Positions 2,688 through 15,134 of a stretch of DNA of 27,023 nucleotides are shown in pieces (the stretch's first letter is position 1; the number at the start of each line of letters is the position of its first letter). The notes under the pieces were generated by a model. That model saw nothing but the letters and a program-made list of their open reading frames with translations. It searched no databases and had not been told where the DNA came from. The stretch is from an uncultured Dehalococcoidales bacterium (lineage in GTDB: Bacteria > Chloroflexota > Dehalococcoidia > E44-bin15), in contig CAZYLE010000004.1 of the NCBI GenBank assembly GCA_964648675.1, positions 1-27,023 on the forward strand, given 5' to 3'. A program made the position numbers and the translations under genes.

Positions 2688-2839
2688 TACTTACCTCCTT
2701 ATACATCTTAATCAGGTGCCTCCCTTAAATGCGAAACGAGCCATATAGGATTCTGACTCATGAACTCCTAACTAAAGCCAGATCCCGTTCCTTTCCCTTT
2801 GCCAGCTTTGATACAAACAGCTAACAAAAGCTGAGGTTG

Positions 2840-5014
2840 TCATACGGCGCTAATATGTGCACTGCTATACTGTGCTATTAGCTCGGCGCTATGCATTACT
2901 TTGATATTGCTTTTACGCTTATCAAGGCCACCCCTGAGTTGGAGCACGCAGGGGGTACAGTTGGTAACCACTATATCGGCACCACTAGCTTCTATACTAT
3001 CTAGCTTTCGTTTCAATACTGAGTTAGATAATTCCGGGTATCTAAGCACAATATCACCGCCAAAGCCACAACAGGCATCAGACCCAGCCATCTCTACCAC
3101 CTCAAAGCCTTCACGTTCAAGCAGTTGTCTTGGTTCATTATATACACCAAGCCCCCTCTTCAAATAGCAAGGGTCATGGTAAGTGACCTTCTTATTTAAT
3201 GGAGGTCTCTTCTCTACCGAAGGAGTTAGTTCAAGAACCAGTTGCGAGAAATCGCGAATTTTACTTGACAGCGCTTTCGCTCGCTGGTTCCACTCTGGCT
3301 CAGTAGTGGTCAGGCGTGGATACTCCTGTTGTAGCATAACTGCACAGCCAGGACACACCGTAACGATATAATCAGGATTCATTTCTTCCAAAGCAGCGAT
3401 GTTCCTTTTAGCTAAGCTTAGCGCTGTTTCAGCATCGCCAGCAAACCACGCTGGAGCACCACAGCACGTTTGTCCTTGCGGATAATAAGGCTCAGCACCA
3501 CATTCCCGCAGAACCTTCATCACATCTTCACCAAGGTCGGGGTAGGCATAATCAGCCACACAGCCGGCATAGAAAGCTGCCCTAGGACTAACTCCAGCCC
3601 TGGGCGATGATAAATCCTTCAACCTGTCACGTAATGGACTATTTGACAGCGCGGGAAGGCTGATAGTCCTGGCCAGCGAATCCAATGGATAAGGAAGGTG
3701 TCTTGTCATAGAGTCTTTATCGGTGAAAGGCCGTTGCAGATAGGAACCAGCTCTTATTGCGCTATCCAATCGCTCTGGGTGTTTCAGGATGCCTCGGTAT
3801 GCCATTTTGCCTCTCCATGACAAGCCCTCTTCTGCCACAAACCTAGCCTTTAACTGGGCTATCATTTGCGGTATATCGATACAAGCTGGGCAGACTTCCT
3901 TGCAGGCCATGCATCCCATGCATAGGCTAGCTGGATCCTTTGCCTTATCCATGCCATGTAGGAAGGCAGTCAAGACAGCGCCAATCCCACCCTGATAGAT
4001 GTACCCATATGTTTGTCCAGCGACTGATTGAAAAACCGGGCAAACGTTGAGACAGGCACCGCATTTGATGCAGTATAGTGCCTCTCTGAACTCAGAGGAT
4101 TCTCTCGTTTGCCAGCGGCCATTGTCGACTAGTACGATATGCACCTCGATAGGACCTTGTGCACCGAGCGTTGTTGTCCCTGGAATAGCACTAGTAGTGC
4201 TGGGACCGGTAATATAAGAGACATAGATTGGCATTTTCATACCCATTGTGCTTCTGCTCAGTAGTCTCAGTATGGAGTCAGCATCTTCTAAACTCGAAAC
4301 CAACTTCTCATAGCCAACCAGCGCCACATGTACAGGAGGCAAAGTAGTCGCCATACAACCATTCGCTTCATTAGTCACGATGACTACAGTGCCAGTTTCA
4401 GCTATGGCGATATTGGCTCCTGAAATACCCATGTCTGCATTAATATAGAACTGCCTTAATGCGCGACGTGCTGCATTCAATAAAGCCTGAGGGTCAGGTT
4501 CCAGATGCTCACCCGTTCCTTCGGAGATAAGCTCAGCGACCTGTTCAATCGTTTTATGTATGGCTGGCCCCACCATATGCGCCGGCCTTTCCCCAGCTAG
4601 TTGTACGATCCATTCTCCAATGTCGGTTTCCTTTACCTCAACGCCAGCGTTCTCAAGATACTCCCTTAGCTCGAGCTCCTCAGTGAGCATGGATTTTGAT
4701 TTGACTATGTGTTTCACATGGCGTTCCTCTGCTAGCTTGAGTACATAGTTGTTGGCATCCTCGGCATCCCTTGCCTCATACACCACAGCGCCAGCCTCAG
4801 CAGCTTCAGTCTTAAATTGCTCCACTAACTGAGGTAGGTTGGCAATCGATTTCTCCTTCACGCGATGAATTTCTTTGCTTAAAGCATCAAAATCAATGCC
4901 CTCCAGTGCCATTTGGCGCACTATATTTAGGAGAGGTATCAATCTACCAAGAGCACTCTGCAGATTTTCATCTGTCAGCGCTTCATGTACACGCTTCGCC
5001 ATTTCCCTGCTCAT
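2840..5014 (-). CDS. lutB: LutB/LldF-LutA/LldE-type fusion: LUD domain + 2x[4Fe-4S] + two CCG domains (lactate/2-hydroxyacid dehydrogenase)
   Basis: KSKSM.TEE, ETDIGEWIVQL, HMVGPAIH, GANIAIAETG, CIKCGACLNVCP and CMGCMACKEVCP, followed by two CCG repeats (TCCGAP...CPGC; YHDPC...CCGFGG...NCTPC). Confidence 0.88.
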   Translation of the reverse strand: MSREMAKRVHEALTDENLQSALGRLIPLLNIVRQMALEGIDFDALSKEIHRVKEKSIANLPQLVEQFKTEAAEAGAVVYEARDAEDANNYVLKLAEERHVKHIVKSKSMLTEELELREYLENAGVEVKETDIGEWIVQLAGERPAHMVGPAIHKTIEQVAELISEGTGEHLEPDPQALLNAARRALRQFYINADMGISGANIAIAETGTVVIVTNEANGCMATTLPPVHVALVGYEKLVSSLEDADSILRLLSRSTMGMKMPIYVSYITGPSTTSAIPGTTTLGAQGPIEVHIVLVDNGRWQTRESSEFREALYCIKCGACLNVCPVFQSVAGQTYGYIYQGGIGAVLTAFLHGMDKAKDPASLCMGCMACKEVCPACIDIPQMIAQLKARFVAEEGLSWRGKMAYRGILKHPERLDSAIRAGSYLQRPFTDKDSMTRHLPYPLDSLARTISLPALSNSPLRDRLKDLSSPRAGVSPRAAFYAGCVADYAYPDLGEDVMKVLRECGAEPYYPQGQTCCGAPAWFAGDAETALSLAKRNIAALEEMNPDYIVTVCPGCAVMLQQEYPRLTTTEPEWNQRAKALSSKIRDFSQLVLELTPSVEKRPPLNKKVTYHDPCYLKRGLGVYNEPRQLLEREGFEVVEMAGSDACCGFGGDIVLRYPELSNSVLKRKLDSIEASGADIVVTNCTPCVLQLRGGLDKRKSNIKVMHSAELIAQYSSAHISAV

Positions 5015-5068
5015 GTCTCCGCCTCACACTACACAGCTATAGCCCCTACCTGAACTTTATGCGCCCTA

Positions 5069-5812
5069 TCATTTACTTGCAGCCTTACTTACTAGTAAAA
5101 TATGCTCTTCATCGGGACCTTGAGCCCTAGCCATCAACGCCTTTGGTATATCAGCGGTAGTGTTTCTACCGGTGATATAAGTGACATAGCTCGGCATTTT
5201 CCTATCCATCATGGTTCTGCTAAGCAGTTTAAGCCTGACAGTGGCATCTTCCATAGTTGAGACTAACTCTTCGCAGCCAACCATGGTTACATGTATACGA
5301 GGCAAAACAGCGACCAAGCGCTCATTCCCTTCGTTGCCCACAATGATTAAAGTCCCGGTTTCAGCTATGGCAATGCTAGCTTCCGAAATGCCCATATCTG
5401 CACTCAGATATAACTTTTTCAACGCCCGACGTACGGCACCTAATACAGCCCGAGGGTCAGGTTCCAGTTGCTCACCAGTCCGTTCAGAGATAAGTTCAGC
5501 GACCTGCTCAATGGTTTCATATGGGGCAGAGCCTGCCATCTGCGCCGGTCTTCCCCCAGCTAGCTGGACGATCCATTCTCCGATGTCGGTTTCCTTTACT
5601 TCGATGCCACCATTTTCAAGGTGCGCCTTTAACCCCATTTTCTCCGCCAGCACTGATTTTGACTTGACTATAAGCTTCACACTACGTTCCTGTGCCAGTT
5701 TCAACACATAATCATTGGCATCCGCGGCATCTTTGGCTTCATAGACCAGGGCGCCAGCGTTAGCAGCCCCCGTTTTAAATTGCTCCACAAGTTCTGCAGC
5801 TCCCATAGCCAT
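5069..5812 (-). CDS. Stand-alone LUD-domain protein, paralog of the adjacent LutB N-terminus
   Basis: Collinear with the LutB LUD domain (43 of the first 60 aligned residues identical by hand count), with no Fe-S motifs. Start ATG 5812 follows GAGGGG. Confidence 0.85.
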   Translation of the reverse strand: MAMGAAELVEQFKTGAANAGALVYEAKDAADANDYVLKLAQERSVKLIVKSKSVLAEKMGLKAHLENGGIEVKETDIGEWIVQLAGGRPAQMAGSAPYETIEQVAELISERTGEQLEPDPRAVLGAVRRALKKLYLSADMGISEASIAIAETGTLIIVGNEGNERLVAVLPRIHVTMVGCEELVSTMEDATVRLKLLSRTMMDRKMPSYVTYITGRNTTADIPKALMARAQGPDEEHILLVSKAASK

Positions 5813-5871
5813 TTCCAAGACCCCCTCAACAAATTACAAAATAGTACGTACCACTTTATTCCTATAGGCCA

Positions 5872-6495
5872 TCACTGCTGCCGCTCGGCAAGCTCCATGC
5901 CCCTGCTGAAGGCCGTCATATTGGCCTCAAATTCCTTGAAGAAACTCTCTTGCAACACCGGCTCCAGCGACTCCTTGTCTAGCGGGAGGACACCAGAGCC
6001 AACAAGGGCGCCAATGAGGATTACATTGGCAAAGATAGGGTTTCCCATCCTTTGTGCTTCTTCGGTAGCATTTATTACCCATGTTTTAGCTGACAGCTCC
6101 TTGATGGTTTCCATGAGCTTATCCATGTTGGGATATTCAGCATCACCGCCGGTAACATCAATGGAATATATCGGCCTAGGATTCACTATAGTCATGACAT
6201 CGGGGTTACCAAACTGTCCCAGCATTCGCAAAGTTTCTACCGGCTCCATGCCGAGGATGACGTCAGCGCATCCGTCGGAGATAAATGGGCTACACTCAGT
6301 TTCCTTCGAAATTCTCATATGGCTCATGACGGCTCCACCCCGTTGGGACGCCCCATAGGTCTCCCCAATAGTCACATAGTAGCCTTGCCTTACCAGGGCA
6401 TTACCGATGAGCAGGGAGATTCTCACATTGCCTTGCCCACCAACGCCGGTAATTATTAGGTTAAGTGGCTCCTTCATTAGGGCTTTCGTCTTCAT
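5872..6495 (-). CDS. iorB: Indolepyruvate/aryl-2-oxoacid:ferredoxin oxidoreductase beta subunit
   Basis: GVGGQG, ETYGASQRGGAVMSHMRI, D..LGMEP.E and N..AF..G. ATGA overlap with iorA; RBS AGGAGG. Confidence 0.92.
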   Translation of the reverse strand: MKTKALMKEPLNLIITGVGGQGNVRISLLIGNALVRQGYYVTIGETYGASQRGGAVMSHMRISKETECSPFISDGCADVILGMEPVETLRMLGQFGNPDVMTIVNPRPIYSIDVTGGDAEYPNMDKLMETIKELSAKTWVINATEEAQRMGNPIFANVILIGALVGSGVLPLDKESLEPVLQESFFKEFEANMTAFSRGMELAERQQ

Positions 6496-8432
6496 GTTGC
6501 CTCCTTTACGATGGCTCCTCGTGGACATATATCTGCGCACACCCCACATCCGGTACATATGACCTCGTCTATCTTAGCCTTACCAATATCCGTATCCCAT
6601 ATCAATCCAGGGCAACGAAATACCCTGGTGCATAATCTGTCACAACCACAGGCCTCTCCAATACACACATCAGGATCAACATATACTTTATATGGGTTTT
6701 CCTTTTCCCTGTGGCTTCTTACCAGCTCGCACTCGCGTCGCATTATCACCACCTTAGCCCCGCCACCGTCCGCCATCATTTCCAGCAAGGTTGCAGTAGT
6801 ATCCTCAAGATCGAAGGGGTCGCAAATGACTACATGTGTCCCCAATGCGCCGCATAAAGCTTCCATGCTAACAACCTTTGTTACCTCCCCAGTAGCGGTC
6901 ACCCCGGTTCCAGGGTGAGGTTGGAAACCAGTCATGGCAGTAGCGCTGTTATCCAAGATAACAAGGATGAAATTCGCCTGATTGTACACCCCGTTTATCA
7001 GTGCCGGTATTGCGGCATGAAAGAACGTAGAGTCGCCGCATACAGCGAGCACCGGCTGGTTGAAACCGAACTGCCCCAATTTGCCAAGGCCGTTGGCCAC
7101 TCCCACCCCCGCTCCCATGCAATGCATCGTCCGCACCTGGAAAAAGCCCGCAGGTCCCAGTGCCATTGAGTAGCAGCCGATATCACCGGTAACAATTCCG
7201 TTGCGCCCATCCAGCTTAAGTGCATTCTTGATCGCCCAGAAGGTAGCACGATGAGCGCAACCAGGGCAAAAAGTCATCATCCGTTGGGGCACATATCTTC
7301 TTGAGGCTTCCTGTGCTTTCTTAGCATATTCAACGTCCCGCGGTTGATACGACAGCCCCATTATGCTTGTTATCGCTTTAATAACCATATCTGGGTTTAG
7401 CTCTCCATAAGCATTTATATCGCCAGAACGCTTGCCATAGAAGACCGGATGTGGGCCGTCAGGCGGCAGGTTGGCAACCAGTTCCATCACGCTTCGCTCC
7501 AGGAAGGGGTCGATCTCCTCAACCACAAGTACTTTATGCGATTTGCCCAGATGTCTTTCCACAAGTTTTTCTGGTAAGGGCCAAAGAGTGCCCAGTTTCA
7601 GGATGCCCACCTTGTCCTCCAGTTTCAATGCCTTCACCGCTTCCTGGGAGTACAGCCAGCAGCTACCACAGGTTATGATGAGCAAATCTGCTTTATCCGG
7701 ACCTATGTACCAATTGAAGGGTGATGATTCAAACTTTCCCCGCGCATTTTCCAACTTCACGTGCAGCAAAGCATGCCGCAATGCGCTCGGAACCGGCATA
7801 AACCTGGTCGGCATGACGTTCCGTGCATCGTGTACCTGATCGAAATATGCCTTCTGTTCCTTTTTAAGCAATTCACCCAGCTTTACATTGCCCCTAGCAT
7901 GGGCAATGCGAGTTACACTCCGCAGCATACAGATGGTGCCTAGCTCCTCCGAAAGCTCAAAGAGCCATTTTGTCATATCCTTGGCTTCCTGGAAGTTACC
8001 TGGCTCAAGTAACGGAATGTCTAACCATTTAGCTATGGGACGCGTGTCCTGTTCATTAGAACTGGAGATAGCGGAAGGATCATCGCAGCTAACAAGAACT
8101 AATCCCCCTTTACCTATACCAGTCATTACGAGATTTGCTAGAAAATCAGAAACGACATTTACCCCATTCTGCTTCATAGAGGCGATGGCTCGGATTCCAG
8201 CAAAGGAAGCGCCAGTAGCAGCCTCCATGGCCACTTTTTCATTTACCGACCACTGGGCGTAGATGCCCATCTTCTTGGCTACAGATGCCAGACTTTCCAT
8301 GATTTCTGACGAAGGCGTCCCGGGGTAGGCAGCAGCAAATCCTACCCCCGCTTCCAGTGCGCCACGGGCAATAGCTTCGTTACCAATAAAGAGCTGACTG
8401 GTACCAGGAGCATCTATGTCAATACTTGCCAT
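6492..8432 (-). CDS. iorA: Indolepyruvate/aryl-2-oxoacid:ferredoxin oxidoreductase alpha subunit
   Basis: GNEAIARG, YPGTPSSE, NEKVA.E, FCPGC.HR, GDIGC, TPP motif GDSTFFH...DN..TAMTG.QPHP and a C-terminal ferredoxin domain. Start ATG 8432 follows GGAGGTG. Confidence 0.93.
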   Translation of the reverse strand: MASIDIDAPGTSQLFIGNEAIARGALEAGVGFAAAYPGTPSSEIMESLASVAKKMGIYAQWSVNEKVAMEAATGASFAGIRAIASMKQNGVNVVSDFLANLVMTGIGKGGLVLVSCDDPSAISSSNEQDTRPIAKWLDIPLLEPGNFQEAKDMTKWLFELSEELGTICMLRSVTRIAHARGNVKLGELLKKEQKAYFDQVHDARNVMPTRFMPVPSALRHALLHVKLENARGKFESSPFNWYIGPDKADLLIITCGSCWLYSQEAVKALKLEDKVGILKLGTLWPLPEKLVERHLGKSHKVLVVEEIDPFLERSVMELVANLPPDGPHPVFYGKRSGDINAYGELNPDMVIKAITSIMGLSYQPRDVEYAKKAQEASRRYVPQRMMTFCPGCAHRATFWAIKNALKLDGRNGIVTGDIGCYSMALGPAGFFQVRTMHCMGAGVGVANGLGKLGQFGFNQPVLAVCGDSTFFHAAIPALINGVYNQANFILVILDNSATAMTGFQPHPGTGVTATGEVTKVVSMEALCGALGTHVVICDPFDLEDTTATLLEMMADGGGAKVVIMRRECELVRSHREKENPYKVYVDPDVCIGEACGCDRLCTRVFRCPGLIWDTDIGKAKIDEVICTGCGVCADICPRGAIVKEAT

Positions 8433-8463
8433 ATTATTCACCTCCCTAATCTGCTGTCCACCA

Positions 8464-9576
8464 TTAAGCCAGGAGCTTATCAACCATGCTCTTCGATAGC
8501 CCAATATAAAATAGGTCGCTTTTATCGCCACTCATTTTAACGATTTCCTCTACTGCCCTTTTCTTCTTTAGCAGCGCCGCCTCTTTCAGATGAGCTAGAT
8601 TCTGAGGTGGCAATCGGTCAACCTCAAGTTTACCCTTGGCCTTGGCCATCTCCACAAGCTCCGCACCAACATTGGTGCGGACAATGACAGTGTTCCAGCC
8701 TTCGATTCCCTCAACCGAGCCCACCGAGATATCAGCAAGCTCCGATGTCATGTCCAGGCAGTACCTGCATGTTGACATAATATATCTCCTGATCTGGTCC
8801 AATGGAAAAGAGACAATGCCGAACCGGGTATAGGCATCGAATCTATCTGCCGGAGGGGGCGGAATGTCGAACTTGATTACCTGCGGCAAGTCTAGGTTCT
8901 CCTCAAGGAAGTGATAAAATCCATCAGGAGATAAAGCCCAGGTACAAAACAGTCCAATCACCAGCTTTACATTACCAATACTTACTCTGTTCTGTTGTGG
9001 AGCTTTCTTCATCTTGGCCAGAGCCAGTGCCTGGCAGGGCATGACAACTACTCCCACCCTCTCTTCACTATCTGTAGGAATGCCGTTTAATGCCGCTAAT
9101 ACAGGGCAAGCCATGTAATTGGAGCCAGCGCATTGAAGCACCTCTTCCATATTACGAGCCAAGAAAGCCCTTGGTGTCTTATCACCGGATGTTTTTGACA
9201 TAACTGCTCCCTCAATGAGTCCCTCTGCCAGCGCCAGGGACAAGAGTGTGGTTACCGTTCCACCATATTGGGCCCTTTCCTTTATGCGTGCATCCTTTGA
9301 CCTTGCCATCAATACTTCCTTGGCAGTGCCTATTTCATCATCGCTATATGGTTTCCCAAAAACTAGCTGGCTGAGCGCGTCCATATCGGTGTATGTCCGT
9401 GGGCAATATTGATAACATTGGCCCTCTGCCAGAGTGCAATTGTCCAGAAGCACTATTCTGCCTTTGTAGGGGACCAGGTATGGACAACCACCAGCACACG
9501 CACCACATAGGGTGCATAATCCGGCATCGATTACTTCGTTGAACAGCTCCTTCGAGCCTTTTACTCTCGTATCCAT
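8464..9576 (-). CDS. FrhB/FdhB-family (F420-reducing beta subunit) flavoprotein with N-terminal ferredoxin domain, FpoF-like architecture
   Basis: N-terminal CTLCGACAGGCP and CYQYCP, then FrhB motifs GGTVTTLL, GSNY, PCQ, IGLFC and CRYC.D..SELADISVG. Confidence 0.88.
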   Translation of the reverse strand: MDTRVKGSKELFNEVIDAGLCTLCGACAGGCPYLVPYKGRIVLLDNCTLAEGQCYQYCPRTYTDMDALSQLVFGKPYSDDEIGTAKEVLMARSKDARIKERAQYGGTVTTLLSLALAEGLIEGAVMSKTSGDKTPRAFLARNMEEVLQCAGSNYMACPVLAALNGIPTDSEERVGVVVMPCQALALAKMKKAPQQNRVSIGNVKLVIGLFCTWALSPDGFYHFLEENLDLPQVIKFDIPPPPADRFDAYTRFGIVSFPLDQIRRYIMSTCRYCLDMTSELADISVGSVEGIEGWNTVIVRTNVGAELVEMAKAKGKLEVDRLPPQNLAHLKEAALLKKKRAVEEIVKMSGDKSDLFYIGLSKSMVDKLLA

Positions 9577-9621
9577 AACCTGCTCCTTTCGATTTCCACC
9601 CCGGCTGATGTATATTACAAT

Positions 9622-10866
9622 TCACGAAAAATACTGTATTGTACCATCGGGAACCACCGCTACCCGAGCACCCTGGGGGAAGTCCTGTGTCAAAATATCC
9701 ATAACCTCCGACCAGGTCTTCACCCAGAGGGTATCAGGTATGGCCAGCCAGTCGGCAAAAGACTTCTCAATCTGTGGTGACAATACTATCATTCTTTTAA
9801 GCCAAGGTAGCTGGAAATTGACCGGGCTAAACAAGCGCCCTCTTATTGATTTGCCAAAACTGCCCAGCAGGTAATGCACTACCTGACCAGCAGGACAATC
9901 CATAATCAATACAAGGTCGCCACCCTTCTCCGCCAATAACTGTACCCCCATGAGCAGACCAACGATTGCTTCATTAGCCTTGCTGTAGTTATTGACTACT
10001 GCCACATCGATCTCCGAGGCAGCTTTAGTAGTATAGTGCGGCACGACAGATTTCAAGGCCTCATTGAACTCAGCCTGAGTTTCCCCAGCGAATGCGGCAC
10101 AAGGCTCCCCCTTGCCATTAATCATGGTATCGATTTTAAAGTCCAGCCCCACCATTCTGGCTGCCTCATTAAAGTCCCGTATCATAGGATTCTCAGTGTA
10201 TTTACCAGGCCCTACAATGTCTCCGTGTCCAGAGTATCTAGCTTCGATTTCTAGGCGGTGAAAGCCCTCGATTGAGTCCATTGAAGCTATACCAGGCAGG
10301 ATAATCTTCCCACCGCCGCCATATCCACTTTGGACATGCGGGACTATGGACCCAATGGCGATCTTAAGGTTACAGCTCATCACCTCAGCATTAACAGATA
10401 GTTCGGTGCCTTGCGACGTCCGTCCAACATATTTGCAGTTCTCATATGCGTTGTGATTGTAAACTGGGAACCTATCCAGTATTTCCCCTCCCAATTTCTT
10501 CTGGAAGTCCTCAAAGGTATGCGCGCTGTGGGAGCCGGTAGCGCAGATAAATCTGATGGCCGCATCAGGAATGCCTGCTGCCTCTAGCTCCTCGAGAACA
10601 TAGGGCACTAGCTCGGCAGCACGTGTGGGTCGGGAAAGGTCATCAAAGATTATAACCACTTCGTTCTTCCCCTGTGCCAACTCCCTGAGTGGCGGTGTGC
10701 CAATAGGCTTGCTGAAGGCAGCCCTTATCTGTTCTGACATCATGTGAGGGGCATTGTGCCCATTCATACGGCAGGGCAAAACTTCCCACGACTCGGGAAA
10801 TTCTAGCTGCCAATCTCCCCGTTCATACCACATTTGTCTGGGAACTGTCATAGTCCTGATGCCCAT
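9622..10866 (-). CDS. LarA-superfamily (nickel-pincer-type) 2-hydroxyacid racemase/epimerase-like protein
   Basis: PIGTPPL, DDLSRPT, ATGSH, NH, IVPH..SGYGGG.K.ILPG and I...H match the LarA N-terminal domain. The C-terminal domain is divergent. Confidence 0.85.
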   Translation of the reverse strand: MGIRTMTVPRQMWYERGDWQLEFPESWEVLPCRMNGHNAPHMMSEQIRAAFSKPIGTPPLRELAQGKNEVVIIFDDLSRPTRAAELVPYVLEELEAAGIPDAAIRFICATGSHSAHTFEDFQKKLGGEILDRFPVYNHNAYENCKYVGRTSQGTELSVNAEVMSCNLKIAIGSIVPHVQSGYGGGGKIILPGIASMDSIEGFHRLEIEARYSGHGDIVGPGKYTENPMIRDFNEAARMVGLDFKIDTMINGKGEPCAAFAGETQAEFNEALKSVVPHYTTKAASEIDVAVVNNYSKANEAIVGLLMGVQLLAEKGGDLVLIMDCPAGQVVHYLLGSFGKSIRGRLFSPVNFQLPWLKRMIVLSPQIEKSFADWLAIPDTLWVKTWSEVMDILTQDFPQGARVAVVPDGTIQYFS

Positions 10867-10926
10867 CTTATTTCTCCCTTTCTACGTCGGAAGAGCGTTA
10901 CCCTTATTAGCAATATATACGAAATC

Positions 10927-11715
10927 TTATTTTTTTAAGTTTGAGACCCTAGCTGTTATGGCTGCGCCTAAGGCTGTCACTATATGGGGATGTGGAGGTA
11001 CAAGTAGCCGAATATTCAACTCATGTTCTACAGCCTCGACGAGCCCGTTATTAAGGGCACCACCGCCACAGATAGCACACGGCTCTACCAACCTGACCTT
11101 CTTAGACAGTGAGAATATCTTGTCGGCTAAGGCTTTGTTGACCCCAGCGGCGATATCCTCTTTAGGGATGCCCTCAGCAACCCTGGTAATAGCCTCTGAT
11201 TCGCCAAAAACAGCGCATCCCGTGCTGAAAGTGACGGGATTTTTAGACTGAAGAGAAAGAGGGCCAAAGTCCTCCAAATCTATTCGCAACACGTTGGCAA
11301 TAAGCTCGACAAATTGGCCGCTTCCGGCGGCGCACTTTTCACTAATGGTGAAGTTGGCCACCAGCCCCTCCCCATCTATGCGTATTAATTTAACGGACTG
11401 CCCTGCCACATCGATAACTGTCCTCGCTGAGGGGAAGATGCTATTTATACCTCTGGCAGTGCAAACTATATCACTAACTCTCTGACTGGCGAAGTAGACG
11501 CTGCCAGCACCGGTGCCGGTGGCTACGGTAGCGGTAATATGATCCAGAGCTAGGTTAACCTCTGTCAGCAGCTCCTCTCTTATCCTCTCGGCTGTCGTGC
11601 GGTAATTGGCGCCGGAAAGTATCACGCAGTAAGCAGAAAGCTCGTTATCTCTAGTTATAACTCCCTTGCTATACGCCGAGCCGATGTCGATACCGATAAA
11701 CCAAGACATTTGCAT
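10927..11715 (-). CDS. BadF/BcrD-type ATPase activase, degenerate delta-like subunit
   Basis: GIDIGS...K, DVAGQSVK, EKCAAGSGQF, GCAVFGESE, GGGALN and ALGAA. Confidence 0.88.
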   Translation of the reverse strand: MQMSWFIGIDIGSAYSKGVITRDNELSAYCVILSGANYRTTAERIREELLTEVNLALDHITATVATGTGAGSVYFASQRVSDIVCTARGINSIFPSARTVIDVAGQSVKLIRIDGEGLVANFTISEKCAAGSGQFVELIANVLRIDLEDFGPLSLQSKNPVTFSTGCAVFGESEAITRVAEGIPKEDIAAGVNKALADKIFSLSKKVRLVEPCAICGGGALNNGLVEAVEHELNIRLLVPPHPHIVTALGAAITARVSNLKK

Positions 11716-11722
11716 TGCTTCC

Positions 11723-12565
11723 TCACTTGAAGAAGGTGGCCTTTTCTAAACGGCGCTGCTTTGCCGGTGCAGGCTCACCCCTGGCTATTGCCGCCAATGA
11801 GAGTTCCCTTGCCAGTATAGCAGCGCCAAGTGCGCCGGTTATAAGTGGGTCTTCAGGAACAAGAAGTTCGCAGCCCAGATAATCATTCATCGCTCTAATG
11901 ATGCCACGGTTTTTTGCCACCCCTCCAGTAAGCACCACATCAGGTTCTATTTTCAGCCTCCGTGCTAATCCGGCTACTCTGCTCGCCACAGCATCGCTAA
12001 GGCCGGCTAGGATATCTTCCAACTTTTCTCCCTCAGACAAGCGAGCTACTACCTCTTGCCGGGCGAAGATAGTGCATAAGTTGCTAATCTGGACTTTCTT
12101 GGTAGACCTTAAGGAAATATCTCCCATATCCTCTAGCTTAATATTCAGCGCCGCAGCGATGACTTCCAGGAACCTGCCTGTGCCAGCGGCACATTTATCG
12201 TTCATAACGAAGTCGACCAACTTGCCCTTATCGATCTTCATACACTTAGCATCCTGTCCGCCGATATCAATAGCTGTCCTGACACTGGGAAACAAACTGA
12301 ATACCCCCCTGGCATGACAAGTCAGTTCGGTAATCTGACGGTCGGCGAAAGGAACATTGAAACGGCCATAGCCTGTGGCTACAACGTATGAAATCTCATC
12401 AAGCTGCAAATTGGCTTGCCCCAACGCCATTTGCATAACCTCATCGGCTAACTGGCGATGTTCAGGACCAGTGGGGCCTTTGACGACTGACAGAATGTTA
12501 TCATCCACATCCATAAGCAGAATCTTAGTCATAGTGGAACCTATGTCGACCCCAGCAAAATACAA
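11723..12565 (-). CDS. BadG/BcrA/HgdC-type ATPase activase, canonical subunit
   Basis: GVDIGSTMTK, TGYGR, TELTCHARG, DIGGQDAK, MNDKCAAGTGRFLE, CTIFA..E and GGVAKN. Start is TTG 12565 or GTG 12571. Confidence 0.92.
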   Translation of the reverse strand: MYFAGVDIGSTMTKILLMDVDDNILSVVKGPTGPEHRQLADEVMQMALGQANLQLDEISYVVATGYGRFNVPFADRQITELTCHARGVFSLFPSVRTAIDIGGQDAKCMKIDKGKLVDFVMNDKCAAGTGRFLEVIAAALNIKLEDMGDISLRSTKKVQISNLCTIFARQEVVARLSEGEKLEDILAGLSDAVASRVAGLARRLKIEPDVVLTGGVAKNRGIIRAMNDYLGCELLVPEDPLITGALGAAILARELSLAAIARGEPAPAKQRRLEKATFFK

Positions 12566-12587
12566 GTGCACCTCTCAAACTGTATTT

Positions 12588-13754
12588 TTAGCTAATAGTT
12601 TCCAGGAAGGCTTCAACCCTTGTTCTTAACGGTGCCAGGGCTCCTTGCGCATAGTCGTATTCTATGTAGGTGCTGGGAATACCAATGCTGTCGAAGTAGT
12701 CTTTGAGTGAAGGAATTTCAAAAGCGAATGGGTCACAATAGCGGACGAGCAAGAATATTGCTCCATTGACTTTCCATTCTCGAGCGAAGTCTTTCAGATA
12801 ACCAAATCGGTTTCCCAAATCTTCCAGATAGTCTTTCTTAGTCTCACCAAGAACAGTCTCTCTGAATGTGCGAGCGCAGGTTATCTCCTCCAAATAGTAC
12901 TGAGCCAGTCCATCCAATGGATCATCGGTTAGCTTTACCTCAGCCCTGAAGGGTCTAATGCCCCCACAGCTCTCGTCTAACACCACATTTGCCCCGTTCT
13001 CGAATATCTGCATTATCTCGGTATCATCCAGCGTGCTGCTCCAGAGGATAAGCCGCACTGGTTTCCTTTCAGGCCCATCGGTACGGTCTTTGACCTCGCC
13101 AATAACTTGGGCTAGTAACTCATTGCCTTCGTCCACAGGCAGACTCATCAACGCCTTTACTACCTGGAGGATCTCCGTTCCCGAGATAAGAGGCGTCTCG
13201 GGCTTCGTTTGTTCGTACAGTTCTCTTACCAAGGCTCGCTGTTGATTATGAGATTGGATGGCTGCCTTGAGTCTGTCTGAGGAAAGCTCCTTTTTAGTGA
13301 AAGCCTCCAGTGTCTTCTTCAAATCGTTTAATTGCCCTTTGAAGTACTCCATAGCCTCCGGTCGAACCGTGCCAGGTATATCCATGAAATGGAAATAGGG
13401 ATAGCTTATATAAGATTCCCACAGACGAGCCGTTTTTTCTTGAGGGTCACAAGAATGAGCTACAATTATCCCGTCCAGGAAATCATCTCTGGCTTTGAGT
13501 GCGCAATCAAAGCAGCTACGAATGATAGGGCAAAACGAGGTAGGCAACGCTCTATCTGCCTCGGTGACCGGCTCCTTGATATCTCCGTATGTTCGGTACG
13601 GGATCACACCAAGCGCAGTAAGCATCTCTACAGGCACATAGACGCAGGGATAACCTATGACCTTCTTGCCTTCCGCCTTAAGCTCTTTGACTCTGCGGGA
13701 CCGGTTTCGGTAAATCTCCTTGGCTTTACTAAGCCCTTTGCTTTTATCTGCCAT
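12588..13754 (-). CDS. 2-hydroxyacyl-CoA dehydratase / class I benzoyl-CoA reductase subunit (HgdB/BcrC/BzdN-like)
   Basis: HGD-D family pattern: GYPCVYVPVEM..A.G..P, FCP, HSCD, RYCDP and TRVEAFLE. Confidence 0.88.
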   Translation of the reverse strand: MADKSKGLSKAKEIYRNRSRRVKELKAEGKKVIGYPCVYVPVEMLTALGVIPYRTYGDIKEPVTEADRALPTSFCPIIRSCFDCALKARDDFLDGIIVAHSCDPQEKTARLWESYISYPYFHFMDIPGTVRPEAMEYFKGQLNDLKKTLEAFTKKELSSDRLKAAIQSHNQQRALVRELYEQTKPETPLISGTEILQVVKALMSLPVDEGNELLAQVIGEVKDRTDGPERKPVRLILWSSTLDDTEIMQIFENGANVVLDESCGGIRPFRAEVKLTDDPLDGLAQYYLEEITCARTFRETVLGETKKDYLEDLGNRFGYLKDFAREWKVNGAIFLLVRYCDPFAFEIPSLKDYFDSIGIPSTYIEYDYAQGALAPLRTRVEAFLETIS

Positions 13755-13790
13755 TTTCTACAACTCACCAAGCTGAAATTTGCTGTTTTC

Positions 13791-15134
13791 CTACCAATCG
13801 AAACCCTCTTGCTTCCTTACTCTTCGGTAATACTCCATTGTCTCCTCGAATGGTTCCGCCCTGGCTATGGCATCTTCGGGGTCAAACAACCGAAGGTCTA
13901 CGATATCTCCTTCAATTGTTAGTGAAGGCACCTTTAGCCTTTCCATTATCAAGTTTGCCACATACGGCAAATGTGTGGAGGCGCTGCGGCAACTGATGAG
14001 GGGGTGGAGGAGCGCCCCATCGCATTTCCATTCTCTTACATACTTCAAGTATGGATATGCCAAGGCGCCGGCGGGCACATTTTGTTCCAACGCGTCTTCA
14101 TAATAGCCAATAAAAACCTGGAGACTGAATCTGGTGATTTTCTCCAGAGGGTTGCTAACCTCACTCAGGTCAAGAGGAATAGGCGGTCGGTAGCCAAAAC
14201 TCTCGACGACGAAGTTCCATCCCCTCTCGGCCAATCTATCGAAGAATCCCAAGCTATGCCACGGCGGAAGCTCGGCGAATACCAGTCGATATCTCTCCTC
14301 GTCAATGGCTCCTACATGGTTTTTCACCCTATCCCTCACCTCTTCATACATATCCCGATAGCATTGCAACGAATGCTTCAGATCGCCCATCAGAAACAGC
14401 GCTGCAGGCATTGCACTCCAGAAATCTCTGCTATGCATGGGGCAGGGTTTTGCCTTGCGCAGTTCGCTTATTTCATGCCACAGCCGGTTAACCTCTATCA
14501 TAAGGTCTACTGTCTCATCCAATTTATCCCAGTCCATTTTCCTGCCAGTGATACGTTCGACGAAGTTAATAAACTCACCGAGATGCTGAACTCCTAAATG
14601 AACCATCCGTTCATATGAGCCTTCCATGAACAGTTCCTTCACTCCAGGCATTGGCGCTTCCAATGTCCATACCGGAACATCCATATAGCGGCCTAATGAC
14701 TGGAACCACTTATACCTAGCATCACAAACAGCAGCCGAAGACATCAGGAATATGGGTTTCGGCATGCCTCCTAGAGGCGCCTCCGCAGGTATTTCGCCTT
14801 TCAGTTCTCTCATCATCTTCGAGGTATAGCCAAGAGTAGCCCGGCTATAACCACACAGGTGGGTAGGAAACCCGTCAGCATCGGCATATTCCAGGTAAGG
14901 TTGGGCAAATCCCGTAGCGGCAAGGGCAGCACCGTAATTCTCTGGATATACTACTTCCAAATCCATGGCTTTGAGTATAGGGTCACCATAATACCAGTTA
15001 AGCATAGCCCACACTGTGGGTTTGCCCGCTCTCATAGCTTCAACGCTCTTTAGGTACGTCTCATTTACCTTGGCTCGAAGCGGGTACATTGATTTCAGCC
15101 GGTTTATCGCCTTCTTCTTTTCCTCGACAGCCAT
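13791..15134 (-). CDS. 2-hydroxyacyl-CoA dehydratase / class I benzoyl-CoA reductase subunit (HgdA/BcrB/BzdO-like)
   Basis: YPENY.A, LCGY, GG.PKP, VCD...KW, SCR and EGD.VD.R. Three putative cluster cysteines. Confidence 0.88.
   Translation of the reverse strand: MAVEEKKKAINRLKSMYPLRAKVNETYLKSVEAMRAGKPTVWAMLNWYYGDPILKAMDLEVVYPENYGAALAATGFAQPYLEYADADGFPTHLCGYSRATLGYTSKMMRELKGEIPAEAPLGGMPKPIFLMSSAAVCDARYKWFQSLGRYMDVPVWTLEAPMPGVKELFMEGSYERMVHLGVQHLGEFINFVERITGRKMDWDKLDETVDLMIEVNRLWHEISELRKAKPCPMHSRDFWSAMPAALFLMGDLKHSLQCYRDMYEEVRDRVKNHVGAIDEERYRLVFAELPPWHSLGFFDRLAERGWNFVVESFGYRPPIPLDLSEVSNPLEKITRFSLQVFIGYYEDALEQNVPAGALAYPYLKYVREWKCDGALLHPLISCRSASTHLPYVANLIMERLKVPSLTIEGDIVDLRLFDPEDAIARAEPFEETMEYYRRVRKQEGFDW

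Follow-up and report, generated by a model that had tools for sequence, protein, structure and literature searches.

We examined a 27,023-nucleotide contig of an uncultured Dehalococcoidales bacterium (CAZYLE010000004.1, positions 1 to 27,023; the whole stretch is called the window below), which is contig C4 of the metagenome-assembled genome (MAG) G000 (1.99 Mb, 342 contigs, 89.7% complete). An open reading frame (ORF) with an ATG start at 8464-9576 on the minus strand encodes a 370-aa FrhB-family Fe-S flavoprotein, here named P0001. We propose, with a probability of roughly 0.6, that P0001 is a dedicated third component, the electron-output subunit, of a distinct clade of indolepyruvate oxidoreductase (IOR) encoded by frhB-iorA-iorB, and that its acceptor is not F420. 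The observations behind this proposal are the domain and ligand anatomy of the protein, its fold, a conserved gene unit, F420 genes that were not found and altered signatures in the coenzyme pocket.

The frhB-iorA-iorB unit

Orthologues of 370-371 aa align with P0001 over the whole length and are up to 89% identical, and we therefore regard the gene as real and its ends as correct. Close homologues carry the names Dehalococcoidia or Dehalococcoidales. The gene belongs to a same-strand array of ten genes, consisting of four BCR/HGD-like genes, a LarA-like racemase, P0001, IorA, IorB, a LUD protein and an LdhH-like LutB-CCG fusion (Table 1). The true iorA start was placed through alignment to the N-terminus of the IorA of locus L050 and is the ATG at 8432, 31 nt past the frhB-like stop and preceded by the ribosome-binding site GGGAGGTG, while the iorB start overlaps the iorA stop as ATGA (6495-6492).

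To describe this arrangement more widely we used 126 related loci with an orthologue, drawn from Dehalococcoidia, Desulfobacterota and metagenomes, a few of which were duplicated between sets. In 116 of the 126 loci the next gene downstream, on the same strand, was iorA, in most cases with iorB after it; in eight of the others the contig ended within 300 nt, and two were exceptions (L033, L125). The genomes of eight relatives carried an orthologue (45-82% identical) that was always followed directly by iorA-iorB. Among species-representative loci, which span Dehalococcoidia, Desulfobacteraceae, Desulfatiglandales, Thermodesulfobacteriota and Syntrophorhabdus, iorA-iorB directly followed frhB in 38 of 39 with two contig-end cases resolved, and the same frhB-iorA linkage was found in metagenome loci with more distant relatives (37-48% identical). 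The identities of FrhB and IorA co-varied (r = 0.90, n = 90), which fits a unit inherited together, although the loci are related to one another and not independent.

The genes around the unit were far less constant. Among the 116 module loci, neighbours included LarA (16 loci), LUD (15), LdhH (11) and BCR-like genes (3), and further neighbours seen repeatedly were FAD oxidases of the GlcD type and Glu/Leu/Phe/Val dehydrogenases, enzymes that likewise yield 2-oxoacids. Clustering of the flanking ORFs gave no further family beyond 8 of 43 loci. Hydrogenase or formate dehydrogenase catalytic genes were not observed adjoining the frhB-like gene in any of the 116 loci.

The linked IorA also stands apart from other IorA proteins. 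In 61 related genomes the IorA homologues fell into two classes, FrhB-linked proteins at least 51% identical to the window IorA and unlinked proteins at most 43% identical; among the latter is the IorA of a second, canonical iorAB that the same genome carries on contig C20. Both linked subunits scored below their equivalog cut-offs (IorA, TIGR03336, 587.9 against 650.9 bits; IorB, TIGR03334, 151.4 against 205.8). By its domain sets the window IorAB is IOR-type, but of a divergent clade. The C-terminal Fe-S domain of the linked IorA (window 6492-6720) has nine cysteines in the pattern C-x4-C-x-C-x3-C-x5-C-x18-C-x2-C-x2-C-x3-C, conserved in 78 of 83 loci, whereas the C-terminus of the unlinked C20 paralogue shows a plainer pattern of eight cysteines. 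The altered spacing suggests a matched interface with the FrhB-like protein.

A few loci depart from the usual arrangement or add to it. The one clear exception is L033 (616-3262), where a 390-aa FrhB orthologue, 71% identical, comes after a GlcD-type FAD oxidase and has no iorAB behind it; although this contig bears the label Desulfobacteraceae, its FrhB protein is Dehalococcoidia-like. A second linked-type iorAB (68%/65% identical) with no frhB was observed in another genome (L065, G002:C2:99000-116000, at 5088-11669); genes for a Glu/Leu/Phe/Val dehydrogenase, a D-2-hydroxyacid dehydrogenase and a class-III aminotransferase flank it. The closed Dehalococcoidales chromosome CP070645.1 (L048) carries a further FrhB-like paralogue (6252-7307), 26% identical, immediately upstream of its frhB-iorAB unit.

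Protein anatomy and the F420 question

Both FrhB domains were recognised in P0001 by Pfam, FrhB_FdhB_N (PF04422) with 68.6 bits against a gathering cut-off of 22 and FrhB_FdhB_C (PF04432) with 121.4 bits against 23.3, while an N-terminal Fer4 match (19.6 bits) was slightly under its cut-off of 21.1. The ferredoxin-like domain contains seven cysteines (C21, C24, C27, C31, C47, C54, C58) in the pattern C-x2-C-x2-C-x3-CP ... C-x6-C-x3-CP. Four more in the FrhB core (C181, C211, C270, C273) align with Cys104/134/192/195 of M. marburgensis FrhB, which are [4Fe-4S] ligands (PMC3591093). All 11 of these cysteines were invariant across 40 orthologues. In this family FAD is held at the N-terminus of a conserved helix (QDGG...) and by the K/N-Y loop; P0001 and its orthologues have the corresponding motifs, QYGGTVT and GSNY, and FAD binding is predicted. 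Equivalog models of NCBIfam scored below cut-off throughout, with 160.7 against 331.5 bits for TIGR03289 (FrhB), 119.4 against 475 for NF040616 (FpoF), 119.5 against 444 for NF006808 (FpoF) and 190.5 against 269 for PRK09325.

The best sequence match in the PDB was 8RIU_B (E = 4e-55). This chain, likewise of 370 aa, is the zeta subunit of the F420-reducing CO dehydrogenase (CODH)/ACDS of Ca. Ethanoperedens thermophilum (Lemaire, Wegener & Wagner 2024, PMC11493965). The FrhB chain 3ZFS_C was second and 8RJA_E, which is FwdI of the formylmethanofuran dehydrogenase of the same organism (PMC11493965), was third, followed by more FrhB chains and Fsr. An AlphaFold 2 (AF2) model of P0001 (pLDDT 92), compared by Foldseek, gave a TM-score of 0.86 and a root-mean-square deviation of 2.5 Å to 8RIU_B, 0.80/0.84 to 8RJA_E and 0.71 to HCAR (5DQR). 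In the zeta subunit, which shares the SNY motif, domain 1-83 holds two [4Fe-4S] clusters and serves as the anchor on CODH, and segment 350-370 forms the homodimer interface (PMC11493965); the model of P0001 has a predicted helix at 362-369. Both zeta and FwdI are operon-encoded, are bound via an N-terminal ferredoxin domain and wire a catalytic centre to an FAD that reduces F420 (PMC11493965).

The initial annotation of this gene had described a ferredoxin-plus-FrhB protein, with no hydrogenase or formate dehydrogenase catalytic subunit in the window and a functional tie to IOR. Those parts are borne out by the intact 370-aa ORF with both Pfam domains above cut-off, by the window ORFs, among which no such catalytic subunit was matched, and by the conserved frhB-iorA-iorB unit. 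The protein had also been called stand-alone and FpoF-like. This description does not agree with an iorA that starts 31 nt downstream and directly follows in 116 of 126 loci, with a gene that is the first of a conserved unit, or with FpoF and FrhB equivalog scores of 119 and 161 bits against 475 and 331.5. A flavoprotein serving the Lut fusion or the BCR-like enzyme, also put forward there, was rejected, since most module loci lack such genes (Lut genes in 11-15 of 116, BCR-like in 3).

We found no cofD, cofE, cofG or cofH in the P0001 genome, cofC not having been searched for. Of the 44 genomes bearing the module three encode cofE (G060, G042, G061), and two of those three also have cofD. Three relatives that carry the module and are 97-98% complete are without cofD and cofE, and two other relatives have both. 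In 38 further module genomes cofE was observed once and cofD not at all, and the closed chromosome CP070645.1 has neither. An F420-type two-electron pool, the earlier suggestion for this protein, is therefore not supported, and the check set for it, a look for cof genes in the genome, comes out against it for the four genes searched.

Pocket signatures were compared by alignment to four solved F420-reducing proteins. The turn at 238-246 is conserved as IPPPPA(N/D)RF in the orthologues and reads DIG(K/E)GKF in the four relatives; in FrhB this IGKGK turn (163-IGKGK) has been proposed to bind the F420 phosphate (PMC3591093), whose site lies, as proposed, in a positively charged cleft (PMC3591093, PMC10229431). 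Past the second core Cys, P0001 and its orthologues read C-T-W213 in place of the C-x-E of the four relatives, and W213 was invariant in 40 orthologues. The loop past the last core Cys pair is GSVEG in P0001 and its orthologues and GS(V/I)GS in the F420-reducing relatives. In a tree of 112 representatives of 50%-identity clusters, one branch (SH-like support 86) separates all 77 W-type sequences, together with one non-W sequence, from the rest, and the three genomes with F420 genes carry the same W/PPPP type. A finer division into motif classes B and C as separate clades was rejected by the FastTree tree, while the broader W-type grouping holds. Because the cof genes were not found, the lysine-rich loop proposed to bind the F420 tail is replaced and two further pocket-proximal signatures are changed, we consider F420 an unlikely acceptor here.

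Two more FrhB-family genes were observed in this genome without F420 genes. On contig C23 (L063, 4433-7469) an FdhA-like molybdopterin oxidoreductase is split into two ORFs (4433-5494 and 5509-6258), possibly by a selenocysteine codon or a frameshift; the gene after it encodes an FdhB-like protein of 404 aa, which matches the F420-type FdhB 7BKB_E at E = 4e-106. On contig C3 (L064, 3118-11135) two HdrA-like genes (652 and 1006 aa), MvhD/FlpD, an FrhB-like gene (378 aa) and HdrC- and HdrB-like genes stand in one row; the FrhB-like protein is divergent, with a C-terminal Fer4_8, and the cluster would by its gene content be an Hdr-type complex with an FrhB-like input module in place of a hydrogenase. 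Since the genome holds these two genes, its FrhB-fold modules are probably general electron connectors, independent of F420. Elsewhere in the family, proteins of about 720 aa (P0121-P0142) are fusions of FrhB_N/C and Fer4 to an RnfD/NqrB-type membrane domain (PF03116), one source being Bathyarchaeia.

A proposed electron path and rival explanations

By analogy, the binding of zeta and FwdI through their ferredoxin domains offers a mechanistic template for P0001. In the scheme we infer, which takes in IorAB binding, the direction of electron flow and the acceptor, the N-terminal two-cluster ferredoxin domain of P0001 would dock at the IorA Fe-S exit. Oxidative decarboxylation of a 2-oxoacid, dependent on thiamine pyrophosphate (TPP), would free single electrons that pass over the clusters to the [4Fe-4S] of the FrhB core and then to FAD, where two electrons would be gathered and passed to a two-electron acceptor. 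Our best guess for that acceptor in this lineage is NAD(P)+ or another hydride acceptor, with a protein partner or an HCAR-like organic substrate as a possible alternative. The locus-variable upstream enzymes (a LarA-type racemase with Lut/LdhH or GlcD-type dehydrogenases, or amino-acid dehydrogenases) would merely supply the 2-oxoacid. Flavin-based bifurcation was set aside, as P0001 offers a single Fe-S chain.

In five module genomes (G000, G002, G008, G048, G084), the closed one included, RnfD and the [FeFe]-hydrogenase large subunit were not found; all five carry several genes for the [NiFe]-hydrogenase large subunit, and some of these genes contain an in-frame TGA. For Ethanoperedens it has been argued that an organism with no ferredoxin-dependent pump sends its electrons to a two-electron carrier (PMC11493965). 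The Rnf and [FeFe] negatives may loosely parallel this argument and are only suggestive. A bolder form of our proposal, which we advance tentatively and at less than even odds, is that frhB-iorAB represents a new class of 2-oxoacid oxidoreductase in F420-less anaerobes, in which the remodelled pocket (W213, IPPPPA loop) would couple the reaction directly to a non-F420 two-electron carrier, either NAD(P)+ (lipoate-free) or an unrecognised cofactor, and ferredoxin would be bypassed in hosts where Rnf and [FeFe] hydrogenase were both looked for and not found.

Several points weigh against the proposed electron-output subunit. The loci are kin, and the linkage counts overstate their independence; gene adjacency alone is also no proof of a stable complex. 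A search of proteins of 649-2000 aa brought up FrhB-RnfD-type fusions but none of FrhB with IorA, and each part of the unit occurs without the other, frhB without iorAB at L033 and a linked-type iorAB without adjacent frhB in G002 (L065). The missing fusion and these two loci would suit a soluble FpoF-like ferredoxin:acceptor oxidoreductase that is co-expressed with IOR and re-oxidises IOR-reduced ferredoxin without binding IorAB, and soluble Methanosarcina FpoF is reported to link ferredoxin and F420. We judge such a free partner improbable, given the near-universal and specific linkage to one IorA clade, the canonical iorAB, AOR and other ferredoxin enzymes of the same genomes that have no such neighbour, the closest structures, which are bound subunits and not free proteins, and the conserved Cys-spacing change in the linked IorA, which suggests a matched interface. 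The remaining points of this kind concern F420. Three module genomes encode cofE, two of them also cofD, most module genomes are incomplete MAGs, and F420 may be salvaged from methanogen-rich sediment. Within the pocket, the loop beside the deazaflavin ring is retained (S287-V288, equivalent to S209-V210), and all characterised close structural relatives use F420; within the family, FdhB uses it without the C-x-E signature, which makes the motif argument weak for such members.

Together with the conserved FAD-site residues, these F420-related points could be read as an F420-reducing IOR, in which the FrhB-like subunit sends 2-oxoacid electrons to F420 as zeta and FwdI do and the F420 comes from unrecognised genes or uptake. 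That enzyme appears highly improbable to us in view of the four cof genes not found in the P0001 genome, the 41 of 44 module genomes without cofE and 42 of 44 without cofD (the closed chromosome included), and the loss of the positively charged IGKGK turn to IPPPPA(N/D)RF, the same altered type being present where F420 genes exist. The remodelled and strongly conserved substrate-side loop has a further possible explanation, a substrate-transforming reductase resembling the F420-independent HCAR/BciB, in which IOR electrons at the FAD would reduce an organic pathway intermediate. The FrhB family does include ferredoxin-dependent reductases of organic substrates, and HCAR was a significant fold match to P0001; however, the flanking pathway genes vary with no common organic substrate evident besides the IOR reaction partners, and P0001 is 19% identical to HCAR against 31% to the zeta subunit, leaving this a long shot. 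We attach next to no likelihood to the database label, which would make P0001 the beta subunit of an F420-reducing hydrogenase or formate dehydrogenase. It has behind it the source annotations ('coenzyme F420 hydrogenase subunit beta') and the use of frhB as a hydrogenase marker in MAG studies (PMC10116835), and is already refuted by gene context, since neither the window nor the immediate surroundings of the gene in the 116 loci contain a catalytic gene for either enzyme; in addition, the FrhB and FpoF equivalog scores are far under their cut-offs, and the true FdhB-like and Hdr-linked FrhB-like paralogues of the genome are elsewhere (C23, C3).

Neighbouring features, annotation and known systems

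The features of the window that bear on the unit are collected in Table 1. A scan for promoters and terminators gave nothing above chance within the operon and no intergenic terminator-like site among the ten genes. A weak terminator-like hairpin was observed at 2818-2833 (minus strand), just past the last operon gene (LdhH-like, stop at 2840).

Table 1. Positions of P0001, its parts and the neighbouring genes in the window.
Feature	Position	Strand	Basis or remark
BCR/HGD-like four-gene cassette, operon head	10927..15134	-	Pfam BcrAD_BadFG x2 and HGD-D x2
LarA-family (nickel-pincer) 2-hydroxyacid racemase homologue, directly upstream of P0001	9622..10866	-	Pfam Lar_N
FrhB-family Fe-S flavoprotein P0001, 370 aa	8464..9576	-	ORF; PF04422 and PF04432; AF2; fold match
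N-terminal ferredoxin-like domain, about residues 1-83	9328..9576	-	7-Cys pattern as in 8RIU zeta subunit
FrhB core, about residues 84-349	8530..9327	-	Cys alignment to M. marburgensis FrhB
W213 in GLFC-T-W	8938..8940	-	C-x-E in F420-type relatives
Clade signature I238-PPPPADR-F246	8839..8865	-	replaces DIG(K/E)GKF turn beside F420 site in FrhB
C-terminal extension, residues 350-370, and stop codon	8464..8529	-	equivalent zeta segment; AF2 helix
frhB-iorA spacer, 31 nt, Shine-Dalgarno GGGAGGTG	8433..8463	-	sequence
IorA-type alpha subunit, 646 aa, TPP domains and C-terminal Fe-S domain	6492..8432	-	Pfam; TIGR03336
IorB-type beta subunit	5872..6495	-	Pfam POR and NCBIfam IOR_beta, below cut-off
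LUD-domain protein, downstream	5069-5818	-	
LdhH-like LutB-CCG fusion, downstream	2840-5014	-	NCBIfam quin_L_LdhH, 857 bits against cut-off 800

A LarA-family gene was observed beside the frhB-like gene, mostly directly upstream, at L083, L101, L104, L116, L122, L127, L129, L132, L141 and L145 as well as in the window (9622-10866), and these neighbours suggest a recurrent association of 2-hydroxyacid racemase with IOR. Near the module in four loci each we also observed a NuoF/HydB-like gene (626 aa; L041 11373-13250) and a 2Fe-2S/4Fe-4S NuoG-N-terminal-like gene (241 aa; L026 13522-14244).

Members of this clade carry the label 'coenzyme F420 hydrogenase subunit beta', and sediment MAG studies count them as markers of hydrogenase or H2 production; one such study reads frhB in this way (PMC10116835). 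The P0001 gene would be unrelated to any hydrogenase and stands in genomes without F420. Approximately 300 representatives of 50%-identity clusters matched at E <= 1e-30, and the W type accounts for 77 of the 112 full-length ones analysed (from the best 150); among sediment Dehalococcoidia and Desulfobacterota the frhB-iorAB unit is common. The literature searched contained no description of it. A plug-in FrhB subunit was shown first in 2024, for two archaeal CO2-forming enzymes (PMC11493965). If our proposal is true, the principle would reach a TPP-dependent 2-oxoacid oxidoreductase and the bacteria, an FrhB-fold flavoprotein would have a non-F420 partner, and its acceptor would define a new reaction. 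Whether carbon from amino acids and 2-hydroxyacids yields reduced ferredoxin or a higher-potential carrier would also change the predicted energy yield and the H2 or formate output of abundant uncultured fermenters and syntrophs.

Among known systems, canonical IorAB shares with the partner genes of the window the IorA and IorB domain sets and differs in having no flavoprotein; the linked IorA and IorB are below the equivalog cut-offs, form a separate identity class and have another IorA Cys spacing. The NADH-dependent phenylglyoxylate dehydrogenase PadEFGHI is a 2-oxoacid oxidoreductase with an added flavoprotein reducing NAD+, and is alike in concept, as a ferredoxin-type 2-oxoacid oxidoreductase core with a flavin subunit that reduces a two-electron coenzyme. 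Its NCBIfam hits were weak, and its flavoprotein is not of the FrhB fold and has no homology to P0001. FrhB of [NiFe] hydrogenase (3ZFS/4OMF/4CI0, 6QGR, 9R51), FpoF and the N-terminal half of Fsr (7NP8) have the core fold, the four cluster Cys and the FAD helix motif in common with P0001 (TM 0.82-0.88, by target), and FpoF and Fsr also an N-terminal ferredoxin domain, whereas P0001 is without a hydrogenase, Fpo or sulfite reductase partner and has lost the IGKGK turn.

The two Ethanoperedens subunits are closer in arrangement. FwdI (8RJA_E; E = 5e-36, TM 0.80/0.84) is likewise an FrhB-type plug-in subunit on a ferredoxin-type enzyme, although its partner enzyme is another, its source is archaeal and its pocket has the F420-type signatures C-A-E and GSVGS. 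The zeta subunit, about 31% identical, has C-T-E, DIGEGKF and GSIGS where P0001 has C-T-W, IPPPPADRF and GSVEG; its partner is CODH, and the partner of P0001, by the binding and activity we infer, would be IorAB, in bacterial hosts mostly without F420 genes. The two proteins are nevertheless built alike, with 370 aa, a 7-Cys ferredoxin domain, a 4-Cys/FAD FrhB core and a C-terminal extension (alignment residues 10-353), and both genes lie inside the operon of a ferredoxin-type oxidoreductase, of which zeta is the electron outlet.

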